Shown: positions 14,629 through 49,363, numbered from the stretch's first letter. The stretch: DNA of 64,000 nucleotides from Candidatus Cloacimonadota bacterium (GCA_030613025.1 JAUWMT010000008.1:3318-67317); one strand, 5' to 3'. A program made the numbers and translations. The notes: generated by a model not told the origin, from the sequence alone.

Positions 14629-14632
14629 CATG

Positions 14633-14672
14633 AACCACGAAATACACGAAAGTCACGAAAAAATTAAGAAGA
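14633..14672 (+). repeat. Period ~10 tandem CACGAA repeat (3 copies) plus AAAAAATTAAG, directly after the S8 protease stop.
   Basis: aaccacgaaa tacacgaaag tcacgaaaaa attaagaag. Confidence 0.85.
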
Positions 14673-14888
14673 AGTTTTGCAGAATATTTTTATTAAAATC
14701 AATTTTCGTGTTTTTTGTAGTTAGAAATTTTTATATGGAGGTGGCTGAATAGTCAAAACATTGATTGAGGATGATAGCAAAAGCAGTTCCATAATTAAAA
14801 GATGAAATAAAAATTACTTTGACATTTAAATTTTGACATTTTATTTGTCATTAGTAATTTGGATTTAGAAATTATTTTAAAGGTTAAT

Positions 14889-24813: not shown

Positions 24814-24844
24814 CGTATTTCAAAAAAATAGAATAGCTTTCGGT

Positions 24845-24939
24845 TGAGAGGAAGGAACTGGTGTTCCAGCTGGTCTTCAAAATCAGTAGTGTGCGGATAA
24901 CACCGTTCATGGCAGGTTCGATTCCTGCCCTCTCGGCCA
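24845..24939 (+). tRNA. selC: tRNA-Sec (selC-like), anticodon UCA. Boundaries approximate (+/- 3 nt).
   Basis: Anticodon stem-loop GCTGGT-CTTCAAA-ATCAGT (24869-24887) with anticodon TCA. D-arm GGAAC-TGGT-GTTCC. Long extra arm. T-arm GCAGG-TTCGATT-CCTGC. 3' CCTCTCG-G-CCA pairs with 5' (T)GAGAGG. About 95 nt long. Sits between the selenoprotein gene and selA. Confidence 0.65.
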
Positions 24940-24966
24940 TTTTTTTATTTAAAAATAGGATATAAA

Positions 24967-26352: not shown

Positions 26353-26353
26353 C

Positions 26354-32393: not shown

Positions 32394-33209
32394 TCAAAAC
32401 ATACCAGTGTTTCTGTCAGTTGAAGAGGTGGTTAGACTGTTCCTGAATTGATTTGAAGTTGGATATTTTTTTCGATTACTTTTACCCTCTAAATAATAAG
32501 AATCCAAAACTCTTTTGTAATTTATTTCATTCATGTCGATATTTTCAACTGTTGCACCTACCCAACCAATATTAGGCATAAAATACAATTTAATTCCCAA
32601 ATCATAATCTCTTTTAATAAGTGGTTTCAATTTTTTAAGTAAATTTAAGCGTTCTAAAATTGTTTCATCTTCATAAAAATCCCAAGTATAAACAACACAG
32701 TTATAATTACCTGAAGGCGTTTTAAATTGTTCGTTTATTGATAAACATTTGAAAGAAATTGTATCCATAATTACACCATTTTCGTCAGCATTATGAAAAA
32801 ACCATTCTTCACCTTCAGATACTGGATATTTAAAATGAATGCATCTAAAAATTATAGTATCTTGTTCTGAATTAATACTACCATAAGAATAACAACCATC
32901 ATTTTCATTACCATATAACCATTTTATATTGTAAGGTTCTTCATATTCTATAAATGCAGTATATTCTTTATCTTCTAATTGGAAATTAAATTTACCAATA
33001 ATTTCAATACTTATTGTGTCTACAATTATTGTGTCAATTGGGTTTTCTTGTGGAAATGCCACAAATATTGAATCTATATAGGTCCATAAATTACCAACAG
33101 CAAGAGGATAGATAACATTCTTTTCTGGTTTATCTTTTTCCTTACTACATGATGTAAAAGAATAAATCATTATTAATATAATGAATATGAATATTATCAA
33201 TTTTTTCAT
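32394..33209 (-). CDS. Hypothetical lipoprotein.
   Basis: Signal peptide with lipobox (IYSFTSC). No recognisable domain. Confidence 0.4.
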   Translation of the reverse strand: MKKLIIFIFIILIMIYSFTSCSKEKDKPEKNVIYPLAVGNLWTYIDSIFVAFPQENPIDTIIVDTISIEIIGKFNFQLEDKEYTAFIEYEEPYNIKWLYGNENDGCYSYGSINSEQDTIIFRCIHFKYPVSEGEEWFFHNADENGVIMDTISFKCLSINEQFKTPSGNYNCVVYTWDFYEDETILERLNLLKKLKPLIKRDYDLGIKLYFMPNIGWVGATVENIDMNEINYKRVLDSYYLEGKSNRKKYPTSNQFRNSLTTSSTDRNTGMF

Positions 33210-33384
33210 AATTTGTCTCCATGTTTATTTTTATTAGCGGTCTAACGTTACAGCTCAGGGGCGGCAAACAATGTGGTGTAACCAACCTTGGAATACCACC
33301 AGACTTCATGCGGGGCACTCACTTGGAAAAATCCCCATGCTGTTTGCCGTCCCTTGCAACCGATTGTTAGCCTTTCTAAACACG

Positions 33385-34491
33385 TTAATATAGTTCTACA
33401 AAGCCACAAAGTTTTGAAATACTTTCTTCACTATTTTCTGGTGGATTTTGAATATACAAAATGTACTTCTGAGAAAGAAGTTTATCTTTTAGCATATCCC
33501 AAAGTTGAAGAAAATCTGATTCATTATACTGTTTCTCCCATTCCGTAATAGTTGTGGCAATTATTAAGAACAAATCTTGTAATCGACGGAATATGTTTTC
33601 AATATTGTCTCGTTTGAATGGAATAAGGCGAGAGTACTGAATATTTCCATTGGCAACAATAAAAAGCAGAACAGAAGGATAAGCCATTCTGGTACGTTCT
33701 TCTCCGAAAAAATTTTTTAATAATTTTGAAAAGTAGTAAGTCCTACTACGTGAACGCGATAAGGACGCTTCAGTCAATAATTCTAGGGTACGATCTGTCT
33801 CAGTTTCACATTCTTCATCATCCTTAATAGCAAAGATTTCAAAGCGATGGCCTGATGAGGCATCAAGAGCGTCCCAGTAAATCTGATCAGAAAATAATTT
33901 TCGTATCTCTGCGGTTTTTTCATCATAAACCACAGTACCAAATATAGTTACAGGTTGTTTTCGGCATAAATCTATTAAATATGACGTAAGATGTTCAGCC
34001 TTAAGTTGTCCAAGGGGTATTCTTGGTATTTTTATTTCTGGTGGGATAACCAGTTTCTCATTATGATCAGTTATTTTTTGCACAAGTATTTCACAAACCC
34101 CTATCACTCCCTGTTTCCTTAAATCGAGATATGCTGTAGCAGTCGGCAATCCTTTTGGCCAAGAATCGTCAACCAGTATAGGCAGAAAATATTCTGATTC
34201 ACTTTCTATCATCCTATCAAAGGCAGAATGTTTTTCTACTGTTGTAAAAGCTTTTACACAATAGTTATTGGAAATTAAAGCAACGCAATACTTGCCGCGT
34301 GTACGATACGTTTCATCCAGATATTCAACTAAATTTTTCCCCCAAATTTCATGCTGTAAATCTTCGTCAAGAAATACTGTTATTCCGTTTTCTTTACATA
34401 TATCTGAAATGGCACGAGCATACACACGTTCTGTCCCAGCAAAGGAGAGTAATACATCAAATTCCCTAGTTTTTTCCATTTCGATTATCAT
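33385..34491 (-). CDS. TIR-domain protein (N-terminal TIR, ~230-aa unknown C-terminal domain).
   Basis: N-terminus EFDVLLSFAGTERVYARAISDICKENGITVFLDEDLQ...KYCVALISNNYCVKAFTTVEKHSAFD follows the TIR pattern (DVFLSF..., CxxEL-like motif). Confidence 0.65.
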   Translation of the reverse strand: MIIEMEKTREFDVLLSFAGTERVYARAISDICKENGITVFLDEDLQHEIWGKNLVEYLDETYRTRGKYCVALISNNYCVKAFTTVEKHSAFDRMIESESEYFLPILVDDSWPKGLPTATAYLDLRKQGVIGVCEILVQKITDHNEKLVIPPEIKIPRIPLGQLKAEHLTSYLIDLCRKQPVTIFGTVVYDEKTAEIRKLFSDQIYWDALDASSGHRFEIFAIKDDEECETETDRTLELLTEASLSRSRSRTYYFSKLLKNFFGEERTRMAYPSVLLFIVANGNIQYSRLIPFKRDNIENIFRRLQDLFLIIATTITEWEKQYNESDFLQLWDMLKDKLLSQKYILYIQNPPENSEESISKLCGFVELY

Positions 34492-34683
34492 CTCCTATTT
34501 CGTTTATGGCTAACATATTTATTAAGTTACTTAAATTTGTATATTTTGCTTAACTCCGTAGTATATGCCATCAGTTAATATCACCAACACAATTTATGTT
34601 TATTTGGTAAATATTTAATTTCACTGTCAATTTTAAATAATAACAGCTTAATTATGCAGAAGGTAAAATTAGGATACACTATC

Positions 34684-35700
34684 CTACCCCATAAACTCAT
34701 TTCCGACTTTACGTGCGCGTTCCGGTTTATCCAGATCAATACCGAGCGCTAAACCGATTTCAACCAACAAATTCCAACCGGCGCTCAAATATACATAAGG
34801 ATTCATCTCACCGGCATCCGGCACAAGTATTGTAGTGAAAGGTGTTTCTCTATTAGCAATCGCTACTACGTGAAGCCCGACACCTTTTACTAAAACATCC
34901 TGAAATTTTTCGATTTCATCATCGATCGGATCTATTACAAAAACAATATCACTCTTATTCATAACTTCTTCAATGCCGTGAACAGCATACGTACCTTCCA
35001 AAAAGTCAGACTTTTTGCGGGTGATTTCATTTGTTTTAAGAGTCAGCTCTTCAGCCACGCCATCGTTATAGCCGGCAAAGAAAATCGTTGGTGCTTTTGT
35101 TGCTGCTTCAATAATACTCGGATCGATCGGTAATGTTAATGCTGTTTCAATTTTCTGTGCCAAATCAGGATAAACATCAGTATTATTTTTATTGGCTATA
35201 TGCCCAAGGATCGATTCATAAAATAATGCTTGTTCAATAACACTCTTTGTTGCTGCTACTGCCTGTTCCCAGCCACATGTGAGGACAAACGTCTCAGCGC
35301 AGGCATCTTCCAGAAGTGTTCCTTTGTTGGCAGATAAACAAAAACGATATTTGTTACCCAGTTCAGTCAGTTGTTTTGCAAGCAGAACCACCTCTTTGGT
35401 TCTTCCTGAGTTGGATGCGCAAAAAACAGCAAATTTTAAAAGATCATATTGTGCTGCTTGACGAGAACCGTCAGTTGCAATGCAGAGATCCAGTCCCATT
35501 GTAAGCGCTTTGCGAATAGCATTCTTTGCAGGAAAGATCCTGCTCGAACCTTCACCTGTAAGTAGAAGCCTGCCAACAGATTTGATTTTCTCTGCTACAT
35601 CTTTTGTCTGATCCGAATTAAAATTTTTCACCACATCGATAGTATCCATCATTTCCTGAACTAATGCATACTTAGAATATTTTTCTTCTGTCAAATTCAT
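34684..35700 (-). CDS. Tandem SIS-domain sugar-phosphate isomerase/binding protein (GlmS isomerase-domain / AgaS-like).
   Basis: LLLTGEGSSRIFPAKN and a second SIS-like half (FFAGYNDGVAEELTLKTNE...). About 338 aa. Confidence 0.55.
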   Translation of the reverse strand: MNLTEEKYSKYALVQEMMDTIDVVKNFNSDQTKDVAEKIKSVGRLLLTGEGSSRIFPAKNAIRKALTMGLDLCIATDGSRQAAQYDLLKFAVFCASNSGRTKEVVLLAKQLTELGNKYRFCLSANKGTLLEDACAETFVLTCGWEQAVAATKSVIEQALFYESILGHIANKNNTDVYPDLAQKIETALTLPIDPSIIEAATKAPTIFFAGYNDGVAEELTLKTNEITRKKSDFLEGTYAVHGIEEVMNKSDIVFVIDPIDDEIEKFQDVLVKGVGLHVVAIANRETPFTTILVPDAGEMNPYVYLSAGWNLLVEIGLALGIDLDKPERARKVGNEFMG

Positions 35701-38388: not shown

Positions 38389-39000
38389 TTACTTCACTAC
38401 CCAGCAACCTTCTACCACCAATTTTCTTTTTTCAAATATTTTTCCGTTAAACTTATCACCAGATTTAATAGGACCCACGCCTTTTGGCGTACCACTCATT
38501 ATTAAATCACCATCCTCAAATGAAAGAAAATCGGTCGCTTCTTTTAATATTTCATCTGGCTTATTCAGCATTAGATCACAGCCGCCCTTCTGTACCAAAC
38601 TGCCATTTATATAAAGCTCCATTCTCAAATCGTTAATATTACCCCTGAAAGTGATGAACTCACTAAATACAGCAGATCTATCAAAAGATTTTGCGCGTTC
38701 CCATGGCAGCCCTTTTGATCTCAATTTAGATTGGACTTCTCTCTTTGTAAGGTCCAAGCCAAATCCCACACCCTTCAGTTTATCAGAACTAATTAAAAAA
38801 GAAATTTCACCCTCATAATGAATAACGTCATATTTACTGGAATAAATATCATTTGATATGGATGAATTTGGCTTAATAAATATTATCGGTTGTTTTGGCA
38901 CTTCATTATGAAGCTCTTCAATATGATCTACATAGTTTCTTCCTATGCATACAATCTTAGACGGATAAACATCTTTGCCGTCAAATATAATTGATTTCAT
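38389..39000 (-). CDS. Fumarylacetoacetate hydrolase (FAH) family protein.
   Basis: KIVCIGRNYVDHIEE...PIIFIKP signature of FAH-family hydratases/isomerases. 203 aa. Confidence 0.65.
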   Translation of the reverse strand: MKSIIFDGKDVYPSKIVCIGRNYVDHIEELHNEVPKQPIIFIKPNSSISNDIYSSKYDVIHYEGEISFLISSDKLKGVGFGLDLTKREVQSKLRSKGLPWERAKSFDRSAVFSEFITFRGNINDLRMELYINGSLVQKGGCDLMLNKPDEILKEATDFLSFEDGDLIMSGTPKGVGPIKSGDKFNGKIFEKRKLVVEGCWVVK

Positions 39001-39278: not shown

Positions 39279-41381
39279 TTAACTTTTTAAAGACTCTAAG
39301 CAACAATACTTAAGTTTTTCACCTGAACCACATAAACATTGATCATAAATATTAATTTTATTTGCATCACAATATTTGAGTAAAGTATTATAACTCCTTT
39401 TCTTCCATAATTTTAAAAATTTTGTTGAATATTCTAAATCATTCCAAACAATCGGACTTTCTCTTTCTTTATAATTTTCATTCATCAATAAACCGGCCAA
39501 ATGACCTTTAGCTTTTTCCATTATTTCCAAGTCAATAGATTCTTTTAATCCAGCATCTATCGATGCCATAAATTCCTTAGACCTGTTATTTATAAGTTGT
39601 TCAAAAATCTCCTGTCTAAACTTGATACCTAATGAGCTTTCTCGATACTTAATTAACGCCAAAAGTAATTGTGGATTCTCAATAAATCGATTACCAATAA
39701 TAGTATCAAAACTTCCACTTAATACATAACTAGTTATCTGATCTGCATTATATTTTCCATAAGGTGCTGAAAAGCCAATACTTGCTAGTGCAGATGAACC
39801 AAAATCAAGTTTAGTTGAAGCTATACCAAGTAGTTCACAAGCAAAACTAATTTTTAAAACATTTCCTAACCTCAATACTGGAAATTGTAAATATTTGGGG
39901 ATTGAATTTATAGGTGTTGCCTCACTCATGCCAATTAACTTTCTTACGGATGGGAATTGCAACAAACCCCTCACTGAATGAGCAACTGATGGTTCTTGGT
40001 GAGTATCAATAATTTCAATATTTCTCTCTAATAATTTGAATAAATCACTTGCTTCGGATTCTTTACCCGGATTTGCCTTTAAATGTTTTTTTATTATTTC
40101 GTTCAGTGAGTATTCAGTTTTATCTTTTTTATAAAGGGTAAAATTGCCAATATCACCATTAGAAATAGATTTTTTTTCTGGAAAGATAATGCCGGTTAAG
40201 CTTCTCCATTCAATAAATTTAAATGAACTACTTTTGACCATTGCCCAAAAAATATTTGCACCCAATAAATCATGTATCCGAGAGAGAGCAGATAAAGGCA
40301 TATAAATAATGTCAAAACATAAAAGACCAACAACTAAATCATGCATTGCTGTAGATTGCGTTATGGGCAATTCATTATTACTTATTCCATTCCCTACAAC
40401 CATAGAAGTACTTATCCCTTTTTCATTTTTTAACCCAAGTGTTTGAGAACTAGTCCAAGTTCCAGGCGGATATATATCGGATATTAAATGTGCACTTCTC
40501 TTTTCTGTTTCTGTATAAGAAACTAGATTACTATCAGTATCAACCCGATCTTTCTGGTTAATAGTGATTTCCTCAATAACTCTTATGGGTGTTCTATGAT
40601 CAGTGTATATGCTAGCATCATATTTAATAATATGGACATTTTCAGGTAATATAATATTCAAATTCGGAGTAATTATAAAATGTTTTGATTCGTCGAATAT
40701 TGAATTAAGTTTATTGTTCTCCTTCAAGAGGTCAAAAACATATTTATCACCTAAACTATAACCAATAAAGATTACTGTTGTAGTACTAAGGATTGTTTGT
40801 AATAATGCTAAATATTTATCATTTCTGATTAGAGCTTCATAATCTGATTTTTTAAATACTACGGATTCAATTGAACTCACACTTCCGTGCAATTTGCATA
40901 TAAACGATTCATCTCTTTTTATATTATTAACACATCGTTCAATATCAGAATTTTGTATAGTTTGGATATGAGGTATATTTTTTTCAAGTTGCTCATCAAT
41001 ATTAGTTGACACTATGTATAAAGGTGATGTTTTATTTAAAGTAGAAATAAACCTATTGTAAATTGGTGTTGTTTTTTTAACTTTGTATTCTGAAACAAGT
41101 AACCTGTTATATGACTTTGAGTTGACTTCAAAACAATACTGAAAAAAACTTGGATAATCATAACTCGCAATAATATCTGAAGCATGTTTTATGTCATATT
41201 TACTTTCATTTCTAGTATAATATTTCTTGAATGTTTTAACAATTTCGTCCCACAATTTGTAATTAGACCAAGCGCTTGCACCAGCACCGATCCAAAAACA
41301 AATTTTATTCTTAGAAACATTTACTTCGTCAATTAATAATCTTAATGCGAAGTAAGTATTTTTATCTTTACTATTTAACAT
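39279..41381 (-). CDS. SIR2-like (DSR2/ThsA-type, SIR2_2) domain protein with a large unknown middle region and a C-terminal SEC-C zinc-binding motif.
   Basis: Three SIR2_2 motifs in order: ICFWIGAGASAWS (GAGxS), LYIVSTNIDEQLE (TNxD), ICKLHGSV (KLHGS). C-terminal CLCGSGEKLKYCC matches SEC-C (CPCGSGKKYKKCC). Confidence 0.6.
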   Translation of the reverse strand: MLNSKDKNTYFALRLLIDEVNVSKNKICFWIGAGASAWSNYKLWDEIVKTFKKYYTRNESKYDIKHASDIIASYDYPSFFQYCFEVNSKSYNRLLVSEYKVKKTTPIYNRFISTLNKTSPLYIVSTNIDEQLEKNIPHIQTIQNSDIERCVNNIKRDESFICKLHGSVSSIESVVFKKSDYEALIRNDKYLALLQTILSTTTVIFIGYSLGDKYVFDLLKENNKLNSIFDESKHFIITPNLNIILPENVHIIKYDASIYTDHRTPIRVIEEITINQKDRVDTDSNLVSYTETEKRSAHLISDIYPPGTWTSSQTLGLKNEKGISTSMVVGNGISNNELPITQSTAMHDLVVGLLCFDIIYMPLSALSRIHDLLGANIFWAMVKSSSFKFIEWRSLTGIIFPEKKSISNGDIGNFTLYKKDKTEYSLNEIIKKHLKANPGKESEASDLFKLLERNIEIIDTHQEPSVAHSVRGLLQFPSVRKLIGMSEATPINSIPKYLQFPVLRLGNVLKISFACELLGIASTKLDFGSSALASIGFSAPYGKYNADQITSYVLSGSFDTIIGNRFIENPQLLLALIKYRESSLGIKFRQEIFEQLINNRSKEFMASIDAGLKESIDLEIMEKAKGHLAGLLMNENYKERESPIVWNDLEYSTKFLKLWKKRSYNTLLKYCDANKINIYDQCLCGSGEKLKYCCLESLKS

Positions 41382-41403
41382 ACCAATAGATTTAGATTAT
41401 TAT

Positions 41404-41470
41404 ATTTTTGGTACATAGTGAATTGAATTCAGCGGTCCCCGGAGGGGCAGCGAAGCCATGAAAAAACGTC
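41404..41470. other. GC-rich long inverted repeat TTCAGCGG...CCGCTGAA between the SIR2 gene start and the protease gene end.
   Basis: ttcagcggtccccggaggggcagcg...cagtccgctgaa. The outer 8-bp arms are complementary. Possible terminator for the upstream protease gene on the minus strand. Confidence 0.4.
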
Positions 41471-41518
41471 GCGCGTTTTGGCAGTCCGCTGAAATGATTA
41501 GTTATACAGAAATTTTTT

Positions 41519-42292
41519 TCATTTCTCATTTGTTGATTTTGAAAAAACTTCTTCATAGAAATCTTTATTAATTGGTGTAGCCCATTCAAAGCCAAAAGCT
41601 CTACGGGTTGGTCCAGGGCCAAACACTACACCAACAACTTGCCCTTTTTTTGCTAAAATTACGGGGCTACCACTAAAACCAGGAACACCTAAAAGATCAA
41701 GGAGCAACATCGGGCCAGATGCCCAAGTTATTTCTGAAGAAGAGATAAGACCGCTTCTAATTATAGGTATATCTACATTATCTTTGGCAAGCATTGGGTA
41801 ACCAACAATTAGAACTTCTTCCCCAACTAAAGAACTAAAATCGTTTGATTCATAAACAGGAAATTTGTGTAAATTTCCAGAATTATACGGTCTGTTTTCA
41901 ATTTCATATAATTTTAAAACTGCTAAATCTTTTTTATCATCTTGATATAATAGAGTTGCTTTTAATGTTCTAACTTTTGATAAATCTGATGGTAATTGAA
42001 AGCGTATAGCAATTCTTTCTTTGTCTATACTTTTTAGTACGTGCTTAGCTGTAATAAAAGTACATTTAGAGTCAACGAGAAAGCCGGTTCCTAACCACTT
42101 TTCAATAGTAATATTCTCTGACGTAGATTCTTGTGAGATTAAACCAATATGAGCAATACCACTTCGTATATCTTTAAATAGTATTTTATGATTTGAATCT
42201 TCATCGTTTGAAGCAAAACATATCCTTATTGGAAAAAGTAATAAAAAAATAAGAAAAAACCTATTCATTTTAATCTCTTTTCTGTATAACAC
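41519..42292 (-). CDS. Secreted trypsin-like (S1/S1C) serine protease.
   Basis: Signal peptide, GTGFLVDSKCTFITAKHV (catalytic His), DLAVLKL (Asp), GFSGSPVI (Ser). Confidence 0.7.
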   Translation of the reverse strand: MLYRKEIKMNRFFLIFLLLFPIRICFASNDEDSNHKILFKDIRSGIAHIGLISQESTSENITIEKWLGTGFLVDSKCTFITAKHVLKSIDKERIAIRFQLPSDLSKVRTLKATLLYQDDKKDLAVLKLYEIENRPYNSGNLHKFPVYESNDFSSLVGEEVLIVGYPMLAKDNVDIPIIRSGLISSSEITWASGPMLLLDLLGVPGFSGSPVILAKKGQVVGVVFGPGPTRRAFGFEWATPINKDFYEEVFSKSTNEK

Positions 42293-42536
42293 ATATTATA
42301 CTGCATAAAATGTCATATACTGCGAATTTAAGCAGTATATAAATTGCCTATCATATTTAGTAACATTTATAAAGTAAATCTTCCTCTCTTTGACAATATC
42401 ATCCTTTAAAATCCTCTTTGTGTAATTAGCAATGTTGACAGAAATAATATTCACAAATTTTTGTCAAATTATTATGAAACCTATTTATCTCGACTATAAT
42501 GCAACCACACCTCTTGCACCGGAAGTAGAAAGATTT
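42293..42536 (+). repeat. Duplicated copy X of the promoter region plus the first ~18 codons of the nifS-selD gene (truncated 5' fragment).
   Basis: atgaaacctatttatctcgactataatgcaaccacacctcttgcaccggaagt matches the start of the 47074 gene. The upstream ~180 bp is ~85% identical to copy Y (44808-45100), including the TTGACA-N21-TGTCAA inverted repeat. Confidence 0.85.
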
Positions 42537-42595
42537 CTGTCTCACTTAGCAGTTAAGATAAAGGCGCGTCGAACGGATCCAACTTCGGCGAGTGG

Positions 42596-43078
42596 TTAGG
42601 TCGACTCTCCCTTTGTCATCATATGCTCCGGCATCTGCACTGCCAATACCTGACCTCGTGCGCACACCTTCCCTTCGGCCGACACTGTAGCACTCACCAC
42701 CACCTTTCGGCCCTTAAGCTCTTTAACCCTCCCGCGGACCTCAAGGGGAACTCCAAGCGGCGTCGGACGCAAATACTCCACCTGCAATGAAGCCGTGACG
42801 AAACGCAATGGTGGGTCAGTACCCATCTCACGTCCCTCTTGCCGGTATGACGCTGCCGCAGCCGTGCCTGTGCAGTGGCAGTCAATTAACGAAGCAATCA
42901 AGCCGCCATAAACGTAACCTGGAATCGCAATGTGATATGGCTTAGGATGGAATATGGCAACTGTCTCCTCACCATCCCAATAGCTCTTGAGATGCAGACC
43001 GTGCTCATTGAGTCGACCGCAACCATAACAATAGCTTAGTTCATCCGGATAGTAGTCCTGAAATGATTTCTTATTCAT
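42596..43078 (-). CDS. Hotdog-fold thioesterase (PaaI-like), inside a GC-rich (~55% GC) segment.
   Basis: 160-aa ORF. Composition clearly higher in GC than its surroundings. Sequence pattern (...YVYGGLIASLIDCH...) is consistent with PaaI/4HBT-type thioesterases. Confidence 0.5.
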   Translation of the reverse strand: MNKKSFQDYYPDELSYCYGCGRLNEHGLHLKSYWDGEETVAIFHPKPYHIAIPGYVYGGLIASLIDCHCTGTAAAASYRQEGREMGTDPPLRFVTASLQVEYLRPTPLGVPLEVRGRVKELKGRKVVVSATVSAEGKVCARGQVLAVQMPEHMMTKGEST

Positions 43079-43300
43079 ACGTCTATCTCTCCATGGGGCG
43101 GCATAACGGAAAAGCTCACCTGCAGAAACGCAAAGGCAGATTCACCCTATGTAGTCCCGATGTATCGGGATTACTACACGGGGTAAACTATAAATTACCA
43201 TACTGACTTTTGAATGCCATCTAAACTGAAAAATTCAAATCCCGTCTGCGTTTCTGTCAGGTGAAGCGGTGGTTAGACCGCCGACAACTTCAATTAAAGA

Positions 43301-44739
43301 CTATTTTAACAATATTGCTTTCTTTGTTTCAGAAAAATTCTCCGTTTTCATTTTGTAGAAATATATTCCTGAACTCATATCTTTTGCATCCCATTCAATG
43401 GTATAATTTCCAGGTTTTTTATCCTTATTTAAAAGTGTTTTTACTAATTGACCCTTGATATTATAAATTTCAAGTTTTACATAAGATGGTTTTTTTAATG
43501 AAAAGCGAATTGAAGTTTCAGTGTTGAATGGATTGGGATAGTTAAAAAGATAGTTATTAGTTACAAAAGGCTCGTTATCTATATCCAGAAATCCATCACC
43601 ATCTGTCTTTATAAGATAGACATCATAACCGCCTGCACCGTAAGAATTTGTCTCTCCTGCTATGATATAACCTCCATCTGTTGTCTGGGCAACAGACCAA
43701 CCCCAATCATCGAGAGTGCCGCCATAGGTCCTGGTCCAAAGGGTATCTCCAAGGAGGTTGGTCTTTATAAGATATACATCAGGGCCGCCTGCACCGTAAG
43801 ACCTTGTTGTTCCTGCTATGATATAACCTCCATCTGTTGTCTGGGCAACAGAACGACCATAATCATTGCCAGTGCCGCCATAGGTTTTGGTCCATAGGGT
43901 AGCTCTCCGAGAGAGATAAGATAGACATCATAACCGCCTGCACCGTAAGACTCTGTCTCTCCTGCTATGATATAACCTCCATCTGTTGTCTGGGCAACAG
44001 ACCAACCACAATCATTGCCAATGCCATCATAGGTTTCGTCCCATAGGGTAATTCCGCTGAAGTCGGTCTTTATAACATAGACAGCATCAGAGGTTCCCGG
44101 ATAGGCAACTGTAATTCCTGCTATGATATAACCTCCATCTGTTGTCTGGGCAACAGAATAACCATAATCATGAGAAGTGCTGCCATAGACACTAGTCCAT
44201 AGGGTAGCTCCGAGAGAGTCGGTCTTTATAAGATAGACATCACGCCAGTGTGGATAGTAAGATTCTACAGTTCCTGATATGATATAACCTCTATCTGTTG
44301 TCTGGGCAACAGAATAACCATATTCATAATAGTAACCGCCGCTATAGGTCTTGGTCCAAAGGGTATCCCCTATAGAGTCGGTCTTTATAAGATAGACATC
44401 ATTCCAGATTACACCGTAAGACCTTGTAGATCCTGCTATGATATAACCTCCATCTGTTGTCTGGGCAACAGAACGACCCCAATCATCGTCAGTGCCGCCA
44501 TATGTCCTGGTCCAGATGATGTCACCAGAGGGGTTGGTCTTTATAAGATAGACATCAGTGAAGCCTGAACCGTAAGACCTTGTAGATCCTACTATGATAT
44601 AACCTCCCTCTGTTGTCTGGGCAACAGAATAACCATAATCATTGCCAGTGCCGCCATAAGTGCGCTCAAATGTTGTTTGTGCCATTACTCCGGAGGCGAT
44701 AAATAAGCTCAGAACTATTGTTAATATAGTCTTTTTCAT
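43301..44739 (-). pseudogene. T9SS-targeted protein made of at least 7 tandem ~50-aa repeats (probable beta-propeller). The frame is broken by a small deletion between the repeat region and the C-terminal sorting domain. Could be a pseudogene or an assembly error in the repeats.
   Basis: Track ORF 43816..44739 carries a signal peptide and repeats TYGG..D.G.SVAQTTDGGYIIAG.T.SYG...DVYLIKTD..GDTLWT. Its last residues (LGELPYGPKPMAAL...) are out-of-frame repeat sequence. A different frame downstream to 43301 continues the repeats and ends in a T9SS tail (NYPNPFNTETSIRFSL...LEIYNIKGQLV...GIYFYKMK). Relative to other repeat copies, the DNA at ~43895-43925 lacks ~8-10 nt. Confidence 0.5.
43560..44660. 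repeat. DNA-level tandem repeat, period ~150-159 bp, 7 copies (inside the T9SS repeat-protein gene).
   Basis: The 23-mer CCATCTGTTGTCTGGGCAACAGA recurs at ~43690, 43840, 43990, 44140, 44295, 44450 and 44610. Confidence 0.85.
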
Positions 44740-44807
44740 CTTTTCTCCTTTTTGGTTTGCTTTACCGTTATATTTATTTTATCATTTTTACTATAAAGAA
44801 GGCGGCC

Positions 44808-45100
44808 TAACATATATTATACTGCTTAAAATTTCATGTACTGCGAAGTTAAGCATTATATGATGTTCCTATCCAATAAGTAAATTTTGTTAAACTGTAA
44901 TTTTCCTGTCTTTGAAATTAACATCTCTTATCTTCTCCTTTGCTTAGATGGCAATTGTTGACATAAATTATATTAAATCTTTTTTGTCAAATATTATGAA
45001 ACCTATATATTTAGATTATAATGCAACCACACCTCTTGCACCGGAAGTGGCGGAAGCAATGAAGCCCTTTCTGGAAGAATATTTTGGTAATCCATCGAGT
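44808..45100 (+). repeat. Duplicated copy Y of the promoter region plus the first ~36 codons of the nifS-selD gene (truncated 5' fragment ending in a stop).
   Basis: atgaaacctatatatttagattataatgcaaccacacctcttgcaccggaagtggcggaagcaatgaagccctttctggaagaatattttggtaatccatcgagtgtgtag parallels 47074-47180. Upstream matches copy X. Confidence 0.85.
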
Positions 45101-45295
45101 GTGTAGCTTTAATAAAATACATAGCTAAATAATCATGAATACTATTTGAATTAATAAGCACTGTTCTGAACAACAGCGAATTAATGAAAGTTGATATGAT
45201 TAAAAAGAAAAATTTACGGATTTTACTTTTTTGTTGACATTAAGTTATCATATATATTATTTGAAATTTAATAAAAAAAATAAAGAAAAATTATC

Positions 45296-46453
45296 ATGGA
45301 AGCCATTATTTCTCCCCAAATATTAAAATGGGCTATCAGAAGGAAAGATATTTCCGAATTTGATTTGGCTCATAAAGTTAAAGTAAAACAACAACAAATT
45401 CAGGATTGGGGTGATGGTTTTTCTTATCCTACATTTAATCAAGCAAAGCAGATAGCAAGAAATCTTAATATTCCGTTTGGTTGTCTGTTTATGTCTAATA
45501 TTCCTGACGAAAAAATAGCTATCCCTGATCTGCGAAGAATTGATATTAGAGAAAATTACCCAATCAGCACAGATTTTATAGATGTATTGAATGATGTGTT
45601 ACGAAAACAATATTGGTACAAAGAGAACTTGATTCGAGAAGGAAATGAAAATCTTAAATTCGTTGGTAAATATACTATTGATGCTGATGTGAAAAAGGTT
45701 GCACAAGACATTTCCCTGCAATTTGGAATAAATAAAGAATTACGATATAATGTTACAAGTTGGAATGCATATCTTAAAAACTTAGTGGAAATTGCTGAAG
45801 ATAAAGGAATAATAATTTTAAGATCCGGGATTGTAAATAGCAATACCCACAGAAGTTTAAATATTGATGAATTTCGTGGTTTTACCATAAGTGATTCTAT
45901 TACACCGTTTGTTTTTATAAATAGTAAAGATTCTATTGCCGGAAGAATCTTTACACTGGCACATGAGATTGTTCATATTTTTATTGGCGAAAGTGGTATT
46001 TCTAATATAAGAGTGGAAGAGATTGATCCTGTTCATGAACAAAAAATTGAAGCTTTTTGTGATTTTGTTGCATCTGAATTACTTGTACCTGAGAATGAAT
46101 TTATCTCTGAATGGCATGATAGTAAAACGATTGAGGAGAATTTATATGATCTTGTGAGATGTTTTAGAGTAAGTTCTATTGTTATTCTCCGCAGAGCGTT
46201 GAGTTTAGAATTAATAAATAGAGAAGATTTTTTTGAAAACTATCACAAAGAAGTTACCAAACAAAAGAAGGATAATGATAAATCTGGTGGTGATTTTTAT
46301 AAAAGTTTCATTAATCGAAATAGCTATACATTAACTTATGCCATTATTAATGCAACTTTAGAAGGTCGTTTATTATTCAGAGATGCTTCTCAGCTTTTAA
46401 ATGTTAAGGTAAAAACATTGGAAAGGGTAACGGAAAAAATTTATGAGGTTTAA
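45296..46453 (+). CDS. XRE-family HTH domain fused to an ImmA/IrrE-family zinc metallopeptidase.
   Basis: N-terminal HTH-like segment. HEXXH as FTLAHEIVHIFIGE in a DUF955/ImmA-like context. 385 aa. Confidence 0.55.
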   Translation: MEAIISPQILKWAIRRKDISEFDLAHKVKVKQQQIQDWGDGFSYPTFNQAKQIARNLNIPFGCLFMSNIPDEKIAIPDLRRIDIRENYPISTDFIDVLNDVLRKQYWYKENLIREGNENLKFVGKYTIDADVKKVAQDISLQFGINKELRYNVTSWNAYLKNLVEIAEDKGIIILRSGIVNSNTHRSLNIDEFRGFTISDSITPFVFINSKDSIAGRIFTLAHEIVHIFIGESGISNIRVEEIDPVHEQKIEAFCDFVASELLVPENEFISEWHDSKTIEENLYDLVRCFRVSSIVILRRALSLELINREDFFENYHKEVTKQKKDNDKSGGDFYKSFINRNSYTLTYAIINATLEGRLLFRDASQLLNVKVKTLERVTEKIYEV

Positions 46454-46455
46454 TT

Positions 46456-46944
46456 TTGAAGAAATATTGTCTCGATTCTAATGTATTTATTCAGGCAAAA
46501 AACGGACCATACGGCTTTGATATTGTTCCTGCCTTTTGGGATTGGATAGACGCAAATGTGCAACAAGGGAATCTTATTACATCTTCAGAAGTTTATAAGG
46601 AAATAGTGGAAGGAGCAGACGAACTGGCAGATTGGTTCAAAGAGAGAAGAAAATCAAAATTATTCATTGCTCATACCATTGAAGTTCAAGAAATATATCA
46701 AGATATTATAGATTATGTTACAAGCAATTATGAATTTGCATATTACCAATTATTTCTGGAAAAAGCTGATCCCTGGGTAATTGCTTTAGCAAAGTATGAT
46801 GAAGCGATAGTAGTTACCCTCGAAGTATTAGTAGCCCCAAACTCTAAACAGGTAAAGATCCCAAATATATGTAGACAATTTGGCTTGAAATTCATAAATA
46901 CTTATCAGATGCTTCGTGAACTTAATGCCCGATTTACTTTGTGA
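46456..46944 (+). CDS. DUF4411-like PIN-like protein, candidate toxin partner of the ImmA/IrrE gene.
   Basis: 162-aa ORF starting 3 nt after the upstream stop (TTG start, translational coupling). MKKYCLDSNVFIQAK... is a PIN-like N-terminus. The family assignment is from memory of the typical HTH-ImmA + DUF4411 gene pair. Confidence 0.4.
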   Translation: MKKYCLDSNVFIQAKNGPYGFDIVPAFWDWIDANVQQGNLITSSEVYKEIVEGADELADWFKERRKSKLFIAHTIEVQEIYQDIIDYVTSNYEFAYYQLFLEKADPWVIALAKYDEAIVVTLEVLVAPNSKQVKIPNICRQFGLKFINTYQMLRELNARFTL

Positions 46945-47073
46945 AAATATTTCCTATATATACGACATAAACAACCAAATACTGGGAATGAATATCTATA
47001 GAATATTATATAATCAATCGAGCTACATACAAAAAACTAAATATTTACAGGATCAAGATTTTGTGGAGTAACA

Positions 47074-49272
47074 ATGAAGCCAATTTATCTCGACTATAAT
47101 GCAACGACACCTCTCGCACCGGAAGTGGCGGAAGCAATGAAGCCATATCTGGAAAATTATTTTGGCAATCCGTCGAGCGCTCACTGGTACGGAGTGCAGA
47201 CAAAAAAGGCAGTTGAAAACGCACGCAGGCAGGTTGCGGAACTTATTAATGCAAATCCAGATGAGATCATTTTTACAAGCGGGGGTTCGGAATCCAATAA
47301 TTTTGCAATAAAGGGGATCGCCTTTGTAAAGAGATCGCAGGGAAACCATATCATTACTTCGTCTGTAGAACATCCTGCAGTTATCGAAGTATGCGAGTAT
47401 CTCAAAACACAGGGATTTGAAATAAGCTATCTGCCAGTTGACGAATACGGAATGGTCGATCCAAATGATGTAGAAAAGGCGATCACTCCGCAGACAATAC
47501 TTATCACAATAATGCATGCAAATAATGAAGTTGGCACTATTCAGCCAGTAAGAGAAATTGCTGAGATCGCACATGTTCATGATATTATTATGCATACTGA
47601 CGCAGCCCAGTCCACAGGAAAAATTCCTGTTCTAATTGATGAGCTTGGCGTTGATCTGCTTTCCATTGCCGGTCATAAACTGTATGGACCGAAAGGGATA
47701 GGTGCACTCTATATTCGAAGAGGAGTGAAACTACAAAAGATCATTCACGGCGCAGATCATGAACAAAATTTACGAGCCGGCACAGAAAATATTTTATGTG
47801 ATGTCGGTCTGGGAAAAGCATGCGAAATAGCAGGTCAAAATTTACAGAAAAATATACAGCACATGAAAGAAATGAGGGATCTGCTTCATAAAAAAATTGA
47901 AGCTTCGGGGCTTGATTTCAGATTGAACGGTCACCCTGAAAAAAGATTACCGAACACACTCAGTCTTTCCTTCAGAAATGTGGAAGCAAATACTGTTCTT
48001 TCCGAGCTAACAGAGGTTGCGGCATCAGCAGGCGCGGCATGTCATTCCGACCAGATCGATGTGTCTACTGTACTGGAAGCAATGAAAGTACCTCTAGAAT
48101 ATGCAATGGGGACGATACGTTTTTCCACCGGTCGATTTACTACGAAAGCAGAGATAGAACAAGCTGCAGATAAGATCATAAAAGTTATCAGTAAATTTCA
48201 GGATAAAAAAGTAGAAATACCTCAACAGGATGATGCTGAGATCAAGCTCACACATTTTACTCACGGCATGGGCTGTGCTTGCAAGATAGAACCGGCTCTG
48301 CTGGAGGAAATTCTAAAAAAACTTCCAATTCCTGACGATCCTGATATTTTGGTTGGCACACAAACGTCTGACGATGCTGCCGTTTACCGGATAAATGATG
48401 AAACTGCGCTTGTAGTTACGTTGGATTTTTTCACACCAATTGCTGACGATCCTTATGAATTTGGTGCTATTGCTGCAGCAAATGCGCTAAGTGATGTTTA
48501 TGCAATGGGTGCAACTCCTTTATTCGGATTGAACATTGTCGGATTTCCCTCAAACAGATTACCTATGTCCGTATTGGAAAAAATTCTAAATGGAGCACAG
48601 GATAAAGCTCGGGAAGCAGGTATTTTCGTAATCGGCGGTCATACGATCGAGGATACAGAGCCCAAATATGGAATGGTTGTAGTCGGGCAAGTTCAGCCAA
48701 AAAAGATCTGGAAGAATGTCGGGTTGCAGAAAGATGATGTGCTTATTTTCACCAAACCCATTGGAACGGGCATTCTTTCAACTGCATTAAAAAGAGGTTT
48801 ACTCGATGAAACGCAAAAGGACTTGTTGATCTCATCAATGACAGAATTGAATAAAAAAGCTGCAAATGTACTTCAAAATTATCCGGTTCATGCATGTACT
48901 GACGTAACAGGTTTCGGACTTCTCGGGCATCTTATGGAGATGGTGCAGGGTAGCAAAGTTGCTGTTGAGATCAAAGCTGACAATGTTCCCATTCTTGATG
49001 GTGCTCTTGAATTTGCAGCCGGCAACGTCATACCGGGTGGAACGCTGTCCAATATGAAATTTGTCGAGGATATTGTTGAGTGGAGTTCAAATATTTCTCA
49101 GATCCAGAAAATCATACTGTGCGATGCTCAGACATCAGGAGGTTTGCTCGCTGCAGTTCCGGAAAAGGAATCGCAAAAGGTGCTGAAGTCATTGCATGAT
49201 TCCGGAATCACTCATGCATGTATGATAGGAAAAGTCATAGGAAGTGGTTCTGAGCTCATCAAAGTAACCTGA
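47074..49272 (+). CDS. selD: Fusion protein: NifS/IscS-like cysteine (selenocysteine) desulfurase joined to selenophosphate synthetase SelD.
   Basis: N-terminal class-V aminotransferase domain ([37 protein letters not shown] with PLP-Lys, AGACHSD). C-terminal SelD domain (LTHFTHGMGCACKIEP matches SelD LTQYSHGAGCGCKISP; later DAAV...D..LVVTLDFFTP, GGHT). 732 aa. Confidence 0.85.
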   Translation: MKPIYLDYNATTPLAPEVAEAMKPYLENYFGNPSSAHWYGVQTKKAVENARRQVAELINANPDEIIFTSGGSESNNFAIKGIAFVKRSQGNHIITSSVEHPAVIEVCEYLKTQGFEISYLPVDEYGMVDPNDVEKAITPQTILITIMHANNEVGTIQPVREIAEIAHVHDIIMHTDAAQSTGKIPVLIDELGVDLLSIAGHKLYGPKGIGALYIRRGVKLQKIIHGADHEQNLRAGTENILCDVGLGKACEIAGQNLQKNIQHMKEMRDLLHKKIEASGLDFRLNGHPEKRLPNTLSLSFRNVEANTVLSELTEVAASAGAACHSDQIDVSTVLEAMKVPLEYAMGTIRFSTGRFTTKAEIEQAADKIIKVISKFQDKKVEIPQQDDAEIKLTHFTHGMGCACKIEPALLEEILKKLPIPDDPDILVGTQTSDDAAVYRINDETALVVTLDFFTPIADDPYEFGAIAAANALSDVYAMGATPLFGLNIVGFPSNRLPMSVLEKILNGAQDKAREAGIFVIGGHTIEDTEPKYGMVVVGQVQPKKIWKNVGLQKDDVLIFTKPIGTGILSTALKRGLLDETQKDLLISSMTELNKKAANVLQNYPVHACTDVTGFGLLGHLMEMVQGSKVAVEIKADNVPILDGALEFAAGNVIPGGTLSNMKFVEDIVEWSSNISQIQKIILCDAQTSGGLLAAVPEKESQKVLKSLHDSGITHACMIGKVIGSGSELIKVT

Positions 49273-49363
49273 TCCGTCGTAACATAAAAATTTCTAGATT
49301 ACACCTTTTTATTATGTGGAAACATATTGCATATTATTAGTTTGAGTAATTACGTTTTCATAT

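Follow-up and report, generated by a model that had tools for sequence, protein, structure and literature searches.

In the stretch of Candidatus Cloacimonadota DNA analyzed here (64,000 nucleotides, termed "the window"), the start of the nifS-selD fusion gene occurs three times; the two extra copies, X and Y, are diverged but true duplicates of the start of the intact gene. In our preferred reading, to which we assign a probability of about 0.6, X and Y were displaced from nifS-selD and are now 5′ stubs in decay, in each of which an attC-like site (L) precedes the native promoter and the initial codons; they lie in an integron-type cassette array that adjoins nifS-selD across a Cloacimonadota clade. 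The probability also covers their proposed origin, given below. The features concerned are collected in Table 1.

Table 1. Features around the nifS-selD gene starts, numbered from the first letter of the window
Feature	Position	Strand	Basis and details
FAH gene (FAA_hydrolase; fumarylacetoacetate hydrolase family)	38389..39000	-	Pfam; tblastn synteny
SIR2_2 + SEC-C protein	39279..41381	-	700 aa; Pfam; PADLOC LmuA/ThsA-like SIR2 matches
attC-like site, protease cassette	41409..41507	-	R″ GTATAAC; arms TAATCATTTCAGCGGACTGCC / GGGGACCGCTGAATTCAATTCA; R′ degenerate
Trypsin-like protease cassette ORF	41519..42268	-	Pfam Trypsin_2; ATG at 42268, 15 nt past the L_X R box
L_X, 50-bp attC-like site	42284..42333	.	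Left R box GTATAAC; right box TTTAAGC (G>T)
P_X, native-type nifS-selD promoter region, type A	42334..42473	+	Contains TTGACA-N21-TGTCAA
Stub X	42474..42532	+	First 19 codons of nifS-selD, ~59 nt of the gene
Truncated attC, thioesterase cassette	42533..42601	-	Alignment with the complete L002 site
4HBT thioesterase cassette ORF, GC-rich	42596..43078	-	Pfam; stretch of 52-58% GC
Classical attC of T9SS cassette, 178 nt	43101..43278	-	R″ GTCTAAC; long imperfect palindrome; R′ GTTATGC
T9SS-tailed repeat protein cassette	43301..44739	-	Frameshift near 43900; 156-159-nt tandem units
L_Y, attC-like site	44805..44854	.	Left R box GCCTAAC; right R box GTTAAGC
P_Y, native-type promoter, type B	44855..44995	+	Nearest: L002c/L012b stubs and Ca. 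C. polaris working promoter
Stub Y	44996..45106	+	35 nifS-selD codons, then Val and stop; junction kept in L016-L019
ImmA/IrrE + DUF4411 pair with own promoter	45296..46944	+	Pfam; PADLOC
Non-native spacer 5′ of working gene	46945..47073	+	
Intact nifS-selD fusion, conserved right-hand anchor	47074..49272	+	732 aa; Aminotran_5 + AIRS + AIRS_C (Pfam); then rimP-nusA-infB

Gene starts and their upstream regions

The initial annotation had placed gene starts at 42474 (X), 44996 (Y) and 47074 (intact gene) and had proposed that they be aligned pairwise. The alignments recover all three at these coordinates: X matches the intact gene at 92% over nt 1–53, with homology ending at ~42531–42532, and Y matches it at 86.5% over nt 1–104 (E = 1e-30), beyond which it diverges and meets a stop codon at 45104–45106. 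Homology between X and Y also extends upstream, spanning 42287 and 44808, respectively, to the ATG. A common upstream segment had been described, and it is present at ~190 bp per copy, but the accompanying figure of ~85% identity is slightly high: blastn returned 79% over 243 nt (E = 3e-50), with 81–85% in the best blocks. The TTGACA-N21-TGTCAA inverted repeat reported for this segment occurs in both copies.

Sequence of the X/Y type stands in front of 12 of 12 intact genes from relatives (Cloacimonadota; Ca. Cloacimonas, Ca. Celaenobacter). Because all of these genes share it, it is the native promoter. As had been claimed, the region upstream of the window's own working gene is unrelated to it: local alignment of 46945–47073 against the native promoter gave no significant similarity (p = 0.36–0.92, 500 shuffles). 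In this spacer, the last ~17 nt alone (GATTTTGTGGAGTAACA, with the RBS) are common to other TA-bearing lineages. The native promoter of the working gene has been lost to the inserted block. The two displaced promoters differ in their affinities. P_X is nearest to the L001 promoter (87% over 161 nt), and the working gene is L001-like throughout, from nt 1, whereas P_Y is 86% identical to Celaenobacter stubs and promoters; this contrast, along with the close match of the thioesterase to L002 (see below), suggests that Y is of foreign origin.

The left edge of the native promoter falls exactly at the integron crossover point, G/TTARGC (the slash marks the crossover). Homology to the Ca. Celaenobacter polaris promoter begins precisely at 44848 (GTTAAGC) by blastn, and that between loci L002 and L012 breaks exactly at ..CTAAC; breakpoints fall at both R boxes of L. 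The L_X hairpin (ATATACTGC-N8-GCAGTATAT) has a fold z of about −2.9, and the site is positionally homologous to R′ in the classical Ca. C. polaris attCs. L is nonetheless a poor attC, with a z of only −0.7 to −1.7 for L_Y and a mutated GTT in L_X, and it was found solely attached to promoter copies.

On the right, the anchor nifS-selD-rimP-nusA is kept in all loci compared for synteny. On the left, the trypsin-like protease had been put forward as the possible neighbor of nifS-selD in an "empty" site; relatives show FAH in that place, and the protease is itself a cassette. FAH is the conserved left-hand neighbor of nifS-selD in relatives, separated from it in L013 and L021 by 0.3–0.8 kb or by the TA pair alone, and the promoter region of FAH itself is conserved. 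From this gene order, FAH is the likely "empty-site" partner.

Cassettes, attC sites and the integrase

The cargo originally listed, namely a GC-rich thioesterase, a frameshifted T9SS protein and an ImmA/IrrE + DUF4411 pair, was borne out by Pfam, GC content and the sequence itself. Each of the three minus-strand cassettes (T9SS, thioesterase and protease) starts a few nucleotides past an R box and has an attC behind it. The T9SS attC (fold −34.2 kcal/mol, z −4.9) received the top score in our attC heuristic, which yields 0–2 matches per shuffled 64 kb; the attC calls rest on this heuristic of our own and on sequence reading, not on the covariance model of IntegronFinder. The protease site (DNA fold −16.2 kcal/mol, z −3.1) is a weaker call because it lies below the threshold of the heuristic. 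Downstream of the protease cassette, the SIR2_2 + SEC-C gene constitutes defense-like cargo.

The thioesterase cassette is 91.5% identical at the nucleotide level to L002:3208-3734, with homology beginning at the R′ box GTTA. In the window it comes after the classical attC R′ GTTATGC, and in L002 after the L002a R box GTTAGGA. Its own attC, which abuts stub X, has lost the L′ and R′ halves and retains an R″ (ACCTAAC) that overlaps with the stop codon. With an ORF just past G/TTRRRY, an attC of its own and upstream sites that differ between genomes, this unit has the makeup of an integron cassette.

No integrase or recombinase was found within the 64 kb, either by tblastn with the IntI of L015 (best E = 6) or by Pfam searches of large ORFs; the earlier remark that no integrase is visible therefore holds over the entire window. 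A search of the inserted blocks for recombinase remnants, which had been suggested, was also negative by tblastn and Pfam. A complete integron is accordingly absent from the window, which has no IntI; the sister species Ca. C. polaris does have the integrase at this locus. The array in the window qualifies as a CALIN, i.e., at least two close attC sites lacking IntI, with 43101–43278 a strong site and 41409–41507 a weaker one; the count also takes in the truncated attC at 42533–42601 and the attC-like L_X and L_Y. Since the window has no integrase, we describe the array as a CALIN-like relic.

In Ca. C. polaris (L015/L026), the integron integrase scores 459.8 bits against TIGR02249 (cut-off 265) and is labeled by NCBI as "integron integrase [Ca. 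Celaenobacter polaris]". Its genes run in the order IntI, a TauE cassette, nifS-selD, rimP and nusA; IntI lies 1.4 kb 5′ of nifS-selD, and cassettes bearing classical attC sites directly precede that gene. Four contigs carry four different last cassettes and attCs, all ending at G/TTAGGCAGTATAGGATGTTCC (G/TTAGGC), the left edge of the promoter. Judging by this gene order and these boundaries, the missing recombinase is most likely an integron integrase. An island-type integrase, which the comparison with integrative elements in the initial annotation would call for, does not suit a constant recombination point that is an integron-type R box 5′ of the promoter, in a group whose relatives carry IntI.

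In the block between stub Y and the working gene, the ImmA/IrrE protein (Peptidase_M78, 385 aa; PF06114 at 5.8e-17) is encoded 2 nt from a PIN-like DUF4411 protein (162 aa; PF14367 at 7.4e-49); a Peptidase_M78 regulator directly followed by a DUF4411/PIN-like gene corresponds to a putative two-gene TA-like module. The arrangement recurs in L016–L019 (92%) and in L020/L021/L023 (73%), and the order of stub Y, the ImmA/IrrE-DUF4411 pair and the gene start is stable in three lineages. Because the block is common to lineages only 73–78% identical in nifS-selD and the TA pair, it is an old insertion directly 5′ of nifS-selD. The proposal that each incoming element supplied a replacement promoter can apply to this block at most, as X and Y both carry a native-type promoter.

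Origin of the stubs

Stubs accompanied by differing cargo were found in at least four integrase-less relatives (three in L002, one in L012, one in L013 and four in L021); L021 also has a 3′ stub of FAH. They are seen solely in integrase-less loci and are absent from the 12 kb upstream in L026 and the 7.6 kb upstream in L009. Cargo, spacing and stub lengths vary among relatives, which marks the copies as scars and not as a conserved leader, and the idea of a recurrent insertion hotspot with defense-like and secreted-protein cargo stands. A fixed insertion site inside the gene does not: stub lengths of 8, 10, 18, 31, 59, 104 and 196 nt were recorded, no common motif emerged among the gene-side junctions compared, and the X junction cuts the thioesterase attC in half. 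Such scattered, motif-free junctions, together with the halved attC, are therefore read as illegitimate joins, formed while the recombining DNA was anchored in the conserved gene, rather than as site-specific insertion into the gene, and the leftover gene starts imply that the array edge repeatedly took up new DNA. Decay is also evident (ATG>ACG, TTGACA>TTGGTA), and L002b retains gene nt 1–23 and 111–196 with an internal deletion between them.

How might such stubs arise? In the preferred reading, DNA from a related strain, bearing its own L, promoter and gene start along with cassettes, would recombine with the resident locus. On the conserved side (nifS-selD or the TA pair, then rimP-nusA), the crossover would be homologous; the second join, an illegitimate one, would fall no more than ~200 nt into the resident copy of the gene. 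The old promoter and gene start would stay on as a stub, later decaying by point mutation and deletion, and stubs could afterwards act as portable homology for the exchange of neighboring cassettes. The ImmA/DUF4411 pair would have been inserted earlier, behind stub Y, and nifS-selD may now be transcribed from P_Y through that pair. As regards homology-facilitated illegitimate recombination (HFIR), the candidate process, the anchor is conserved in all loci, and the junctions are motif-free, one of them halving an attC. Counting against this explanation, classical HFIR usually replaces resident DNA and leaves no duplicated stub. Also, all stubs retain L, promoter and ATG and lack the 3′ part, a bias not expected of purely random joining, save where selection or anchor geometry dictates it.

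An integron integrase could itself have made or moved the stubs, such that the unit running from TTAAGC through promoter, stub and cargo to the next L is a true cassette: recombination between an attC and a genomic site close by would have enclosed chromosomal DNA from the flank, to be re-inserted at L. Every stub unit is indeed bounded on its left by an R box and closed by the next L, a relative has IntI adjoining the same gene, and IntI is known to insert at genomic 5′-GWT and to excise at nearby genomic sites (10.1101/2022.09.11.507474). Nevertheless, we hold this to be unlikely, given that the gene-side stub ends are not at GWT/GTT sites, that the attC beside stub X is truncated and not joined via R′, that integrase-bearing loci are without stubs, and that no promoter-stub-cargo unit turned up twice in the arrays, at separate positions bounded by R boxes. 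A related notion strikes us as quite improbable: IntI, acting where the array meets the chromosome, would have packaged a promoter and gene start beside an attC, and the resulting L-promoter-stub would have spread much as a cassette does. If true, it would offer a natural snapshot of the birth of new cassettes or attI/Pc-like platforms, and the nifS-selD promoter region could double as the array's insertion platform. About equally doubtful is the scheme of successive integrative elements entering nifS-selD by site-specific insertion at its 5′ end, each bringing a new 5′ end and promoter, with the integrase lost or acting in trans, as with SXT at prfC or islands at tRNA 3′ ends. Such elements do make an architecture of stub, cargo and restored gene start; upstream of the working gene lie foreign sequence and a TA pair, a kind of cargo typical of such elements; and the stable order of stub Y, TA pair and gene in three lineages agrees with it. 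Yet a gene-end-targeting element should have its own integrase and a fixed att core at both ends, and neither was observed: blocks and window alike lack an integrase or remnant, and stub ends range from +8 to +196 with no shared core. Moreover, X and Y share the native promoter and ~190 bp of upstream homology, far above an att core, the X junction lies in mid-attC, and block 1 consists of integron cassettes and is no island.

The copies might instead have been retained for a function, as extra promoters, as operator decoys (via TTGACA-N21-TGTCAA) or as antisense regulators of the minus-strand cassettes; in a further form of this proposal, a leftward Pc-like promoter and an attI-like site would drive and capture cassettes. 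X, Y, L002b and L002c all retain an undamaged −35-like box and inverted repeat, and one compensatory change preserves the L hairpin in L002c. P_X and P_Y contain leftward promoter-like hexamers, the minus-strand cassettes begin 15–65 nt from L without obvious promoters of their own, and P_Y is a candidate driver of nifS-selD through the TA pair. However, several copies are decaying by the point changes given above and by internal deletions, the promoter scan did not exceed chance (22 found vs. 18.9 expected), and neither spacing nor cargo is conserved; a retained function is thus a decidedly weak contender. It had also been asked whether the duplication was an artefact of assembly or binning: the window probably comes from a metagenome assembly, and the GC-rich block looks foreign. 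An artefact is very unlikely, to the point of being negligible, because the copies are 13–21% diverged, because an independent MAG (L002) has the GC-rich thioesterase cassette within AT-rich surroundings, and because four independent assemblies (L016–L019, 92% identical) reproduce the succession of stub Y, TA pair and gene start.

Comparison with known systems

The SXT/R391 ICE, according to Hochhut and Waldor in 1999, reportedly enters the 5′ end of prfC and supplies a new promoter and 5′ coding sequence. As there, an inserted block at nifS-selD parts the native promoter and start from the gene body, and a substitute upstream region and start are used. The present locus differs in having no integrase and no core of the 17-bp type, in its varying stub lengths, and in a duplicated segment that takes in ~190 bp of promoter.

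Displacement arrays at Rhs/CDI/T6SS effector-immunity loci, which have been explained by HFIR (Kirchberger et al. 2017, PMC5361080, citing Jackson et al. 2009), would share with our locus the mode of recombination, in which a conserved anchor serves one flank and illegitimate joining the opposite one, as well as strings of orphan fragments of earlier occupants and later swapping of arrays by homologous recombination. The orphans there are 3′ toxin tips and immunity genes, whereas here they are 5′ ends of a metabolic gene with promoters, interleaved with integron cassettes. Genomic attG sites and SALINs (Loot et al., bioRxiv 10.1101/2022.09.11.507474; single cassettes and deletions, E. coli) likewise place cassettes beside a chromosomal promoter outside the classical platform, and nearby-site excision can remodel the chromosome; repeated duplication of a flanking gene start is not described in that work.

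Sedentary chromosomal integrons and CALINs (Cury et al. 2016, PMC4889954) resemble the locus in several respects: promoterless ORFs, an imperfect-palindrome attC (boxes RYYYAAC...GTTRRRY) behind each of them, cassette boundaries at G/TT, content that differs between close relatives, cargo with a TA-type pair and defense-like genes, and an IntI present at the same locus in the sister species and absent from the window. They differ in that here a housekeeping-gene promoter and first codons are repeated, each fused to a short attC-like site. Cassette orientation also differs among relatives: the cassettes point away from nifS-selD in integrase-less lineages and towards it in Ca. C. polaris.

Probable displaced gene starts upstream of nifS-selD

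The intact NifS-SelD fusion of the window (732 aa; Aminotran_5, AIRS and AIRS_C domains) has no exact-sequence match on record. The three gene starts of the initial annotation are all present where it had placed them, and its cargo annotations hold, including the ImmA/IrrE (Peptidase_M78) and DUF4411 genes (the TA pair) between copy Y and the gene. Copy X retains 19 codons of nifS-selD (92% identical to the intact start over 53 nt; divergence near 42532), and Y matches the gene for 104 nt at 86.5% before its stop.

Upstream of X and Y lies a common segment of ~190 bp. It had been described as ~180 bp at ~85% identity; the sharing stands, but blastn gives 79% over 243 nt (E 3e-50), with 81–85% reached only in the best blocks. 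Two further claims were borne out by the sequence and by shuffled controls: TTGACA-N21-TGTCAA occurs in both upstream segments, and the intact gene has an unrelated upstream region, the 129 bp 5' of it bearing no similarity to the X/Y segment above the controls. An apparent AATATTTACAGGA / AATATTGACAGAA match, considered as a degenerate native promoter in 46945–47073, was no better than those of shuffles. Rfam searches (gathering threshold over the whole window, E ≤ 1 over 41300–47200) matched only tRNA-Sec; thus, the hairpins are not a curated RNA family. Might the repeats be an assembly duplication? The X, Y and intact copies diverge from one another by 13–21%, and the order of stub Y, TA pair and gene start was found again in four independent metagenome assemblies; an artefact is therefore excluded for practical purposes.

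Features of the window and their positions
Feature	Position	Strand	Remark
Heuristic attC match	14591–14716		AAACAAC...GTTTTTT
tRNA-Sec, selA, selB	24842–28291		
HATPase_c_2/GNAT gene	30696–32201		also in L013
Three ORFs	32394–35700	minus	before DUF4954
TIR_2-domain protein	33385–34491	minus	one of the three ORFs
SIR2_2 gene and protease	39279–42268		
Weaker attC	41507 to 41409		after protease ORF
L_X	42284–42333		ends GTATAAC...TTTAAGC, R-box-like
Common upstream, X	42287–42473		
Copy X, ATG	42474		
T9SS cassette attC	43278 to 43101	minus	178 nt
T9SS-tailed cassette ORF	44739 to 43301	minus	frameshifted
T9SS repeat units	43602–44661		
L_Y	44805–44854		ends GCCTAAC...GTTAAGC, R-box-like
Common upstream, Y	44808–44995		
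Copy Y, ATG	44996		stop at 45104–45106
TA pair	45296–46944		
Intact nifS-selD, start	47074		

The closest relatives of nifS-selD reside in Cloacimonadota MAGs: Ca. Cloacimonas sp. 4484_140 (locus L001; 92% aa), Ca. Celaenobacter antarcticus (L002; 88%) and a third MAG (L003; 87%). Scanning metagenomes for a DNA pattern gave nine further loci. In 12 of the 12 intact relatives, the ATG is directly preceded by upstream sequence of the X/Y type, TTGACA-N21-23-TGTCAA included; it is therefore the native nifS-selD promoter, which the window's working copy has lost.

Using sensitive blastn, we sought further copies of the promoter and gene start upstream of nifS-selD in the relatives. Three extra copies were found in L002/L008, one each in L012 and L013, and four in L021/L022, retaining 8, 10, 18, 31 and 23(+86) nt of the gene; the last, L002b, keeps nt 1–23 and 111–196 around an internal deletion of 87 nt. 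Several carry ATG>ACG and TTGACA>TTGGTA changes; the copies are decaying pseudo-starts. Decay of several copies argues against the proposal that the stubs were kept because they still serve as promoters, as decoys or as an attI/Pc-like platform, and we consider it improbable. Cargo and spacing differ in every genome; the conserved leader or regulatory arrangement that the initial annotation had named as the alternative to insertion scars is therefore ruled out, and the hotspot is confirmed.

A cassette array ending at the promoter

In Ca. Celaenobacter polaris (GCA_030765445.1; L015 and L026), an integron integrase (IntI; TIGR02249, 459.8 bits against a cut-off of 265) is encoded by a 322–326-aa ORF located 1.4 kb upstream of nifS-selD, and the identical protein had already been named “integron integrase” by the NCBI pipeline. 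L009, L011, L014 and L015 carry plus-strand ORFs with a classical attC behind each one (..TAAC box, imperfect palindrome of 55–135 nt, GTTAGGC/GTTATGS box). The last cassette and its attC are different in each of these contigs, and all four converge exactly on G|TTAGGCAGTATAGGATGTTCCTATC, the left edge of the native promoter.

Directly upstream of the IntI gene, three contigs carry a conserved attC-like palindrome of ~130 nt (CGATAAC...GTTATCG; L015 220–349, L026 9830–9959, L030 194–325). Cassettes with attC flank IntI on both sides in L026; the gene seems to lie within the array, oriented like the cassettes. L026 also encodes a second tyrosine recombinase (4996–5886; 296 aa; Phage_int_SAM_4, Phage_integrase, MrpR_C_cat) 4 kb upstream of IntI. 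In L030 (1538–5933), the cassette-array cargo downstream of an 89%-identical IntI has defence-like contents: an AAA_15/DUF4435 pair and an ORF with a reverse-transcriptase domain.

In the window, attC sites were called with our own heuristic and by reading the sequence; the shuffled window gives 0–2 matches. The heuristic superseded two overly stringent scanners (strict stem score; constrained folding). Homology of Y to the promoters of L009, L011, L014 and L015 begins by blastn at 44848, the G of GTTAAGC, and that of X at 42328; thus, the left ~50 bp of the repeat (L_X and L_Y) occupy the position of an attC. A hairpin is conserved among the L sites; L002c, a stub of L002, has one compensatory change in it.

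The cargo of the window is built of cassettes that run on the minus strand. The attC of the T9SS-tailed cassette (R'' GTCTAAC, a long stem, R' GTTATGC; fold -34.2 kcal/mol, z -4.9) has the top score of all sites in the heuristic. The thioesterase ORF (4HBT), in a patch of 52–58% GC, starts 22 nt past its R' and has its stop codon inside the next R'' (ACCTAAC). A cassette with 91.5% nucleotide identity occurs in L002, but behind the left R box of an L element, where homology begins at GTTA. The thioesterase attC is complete in L002; in the window its distal half is absent, and it runs directly into the end of stub X. On the far side of L_X, 15 nt separate the R box from the start of the protease ORF, which is followed by a weaker attC and a SIR2-like gene. 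Neither 42540–47073 nor the rest of the 64 kb contains integrase or recombinase remnants, so the earlier remark that no integrase is visible holds throughout. Cassettes with attC and no integrase are what lead us to regard the window as holding a probable CALIN-type relic (a cluster of attC sites lacking integron integrase), not a complete integron. Stubs are so far confined to integrase-less loci (about 5 lineages, with 2 integrase-bearing): none was found over 12 kb upstream in L026 or 7.6 kb in L009.

Several minor features were recorded. The T9SS repeat gene has five 156–159-nt (52–53-aa) units (YGG..D.G.SV.QT.DGGYII.G; 62–87% identity), one of which is disrupted near 43900, hence the frameshift. 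Leftward sigma-70-like hexamers (TTTACT-N17/18-TATAAT/TATGAT; minus strand, 44855–44884 and 42350–42378) lie in both promoter copies and point via L into the minus-strand cassettes; the scan overall was not above chance. The sole other heuristic match (score 12.5), between subtilase and sortilin-like genes, is probably a chance palindrome or terminator. Variation extends to the region from the nifS-selD stop to the conserved terminator/rimP promoter: L001 carries TTCCCAAGCAGGGGCTTGGGAA palindromes in an insertion there (3690–4060), and L002 (10750–12090) and L020 have T9SS-tail ORFs 3' of nifS-selD. Directly after the stop codon, the window (49273–49330) and L001 share a short AAC...palindrome...GTG that might be a degenerate attC; with conservation in L001 alone, 49273–49320 is too weak to claim.

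Conserved genes flank the locus: on the left a fumarylacetoacetate hydrolase family gene (FAH), with DUF4954 in some genomes, and on the right nifS-selD-rimP-nusA-infB. FAH is the near neighbour in L013 and L021, so the protease is not the “empty-site” partner of nifS-selD that had been envisaged. FAH as a cassette is unsupported: its homology boundary lies ~15 nt from the nearest GTT, which the relatives lack. In L021 (1014–1075, 3759–3800), promoter copy 1 leads into the same short stub and a ~35-nt FAH 3'-end remnant that also follows copy 3, where FAH is complete; this segment was thus duplicated or imported and interrupted later, and FAH leaves stubs too.

Origin of the stubs

On their left side, the repeat units are bounded by R boxes in three independent comparisons. 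The stub ends, by contrast, are scattered from +8 to +196, one cuts an attC in the middle, and GWT/GTT is absent from the gene-side junctions, which rules these out as secondary IntI sites. The left boundaries are thus site-specific and the right ones are not. L002 and L012 are 99–100% identical to the right of stub c, ~85% identical within L and the promoter, and unrelated to the left of ..CTAAC. A module of cassettes, L and promoter was therefore exchanged, its right crossover lying within the final ~25 nt of promoter or stub, and the stubs would thus act as portable homology.

By promoter type, X clusters with L002b and the L001 working promoter, and Y with L002c, L012b (a stub of L012) and the working promoter of Ca. 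C. polaris. The window's gene body is L001-like from nt 1 throughout, with no mosaic breakpoint inside the working gene that would mark a homologous crossover. Together, gene body and promoter types indicate that X is the resident promoter and that Y and the Celaenobacter-like thioesterase cassette were imported.

We favor, with a probability of roughly 0.6, the reading that the hotspot is where an integron-type cassette array ends and that X and Y are stubs displaced by recombination with related strains. Our confidence is highest for the integron context and for the stubs being relics; a specifically homologous-plus-illegitimate route is put forward tentatively. In that route, related-strain DNA with its own L, promoter, gene start and cassettes would recombine via the conserved gene side, and an illegitimate join within the first codons of the resident gene would leave X and Y behind as stubs. 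The stubs might instead be “promoter cassettes” made by IntI, an enzyme able to use genomic sites and to excise at sites close by (Loot et al.); however, their ends are not at GWT and the adjoining attC is truncated, making this origin unlikely. The initial annotation had each incoming element insert at a fixed site in the 5' end of the gene and supply a replacement 5' end. Scattered stub ends, one of them within an attC, disagree with a fixed site, and both stubs keep the native promoter; with the integrase missing as well, an SXT/prfC-like integrative element is quite improbable.

The TA pair lies directly 5' of nifS-selD in three settings: the window; L016–L019 (92% nt, with the same stub-Y junction); and L020/L021/L023 (73% nt; GCA_964447485.1 and a JGI lake metagenome), where the order is FAH, immediately followed by a promoter copy with 18 nt of the gene, and then the pair. 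What the three spacers have in common is confined to the final ~17 nt 5' of the start codon (GATTTTRTGGAGTAAC, RBS within). The presence of the pair at the same place in L020/L021/L023 means that the insertion predates the split of lineages with nifS-selD 76% identical and is not recent in the window. No terminator-like site was found on the plus strand from the promoter of Y to 47074; read-through from that promoter via the TA pair into nifS-selD is thus possible.

Implications and neighboring genes

Integrons, CALINs and TA cassettes are well known (PMC4889954). In the literature searched, we found no description of integrons in Cloacimonadota/Cloacimonetes, nor an earlier description of an array interspersed, in several lineages, with a series of copies of the promoter and first codons of its flanking gene, every one joined to an attC-like site. 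On the favored reading, the hotspot's “missing” recombination system would be a chromosomal integron in an uncultivated phylum, its array ending at the promoter of a selenium-metabolism gene. The stubs would be serial, dated fossils of the array boundary that allow the order and source of acquisitions (X resident-type, Y Celaenobacter-type) to be reconstructed, and they point to an interplay of integrase cassette capture with homologous/illegitimate recombination that remodels arrays after integrase loss. Were the integrase itself to make stubs, the locus would bear on how cassettes originate. Annotators should expect short nifS-selD pseudo-starts and CALIN-type defence cargo here.

The 700-aa SIR2_2 protein with a C-terminal SEC-C (PADLOC: LmuA/ThsA-like SIR2) adjoins the secreted trypsin-like protease (PADLOC: PDC-S45/RT-protease-like), a possible two-gene defence cassette pair. 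Three minus-strand ORFs, including the TIR_2 protein, lie between the conserved HATPase_c_2/GNAT gene and DUF4954; the stretch of variable, defence-like content may thus begin at ~32.2 kb and reach 47.07 kb. Neither an attC nor a promoter stub turned up in 32394–35700. Finally, tRNA-Sec (Rfam 56.8 bits; ARAGORN anticodon TCA) is directly followed by selA (PF03841, 9.6e-136) and selB, placing selenocysteine machinery 19 kb upstream of nifS-selD.
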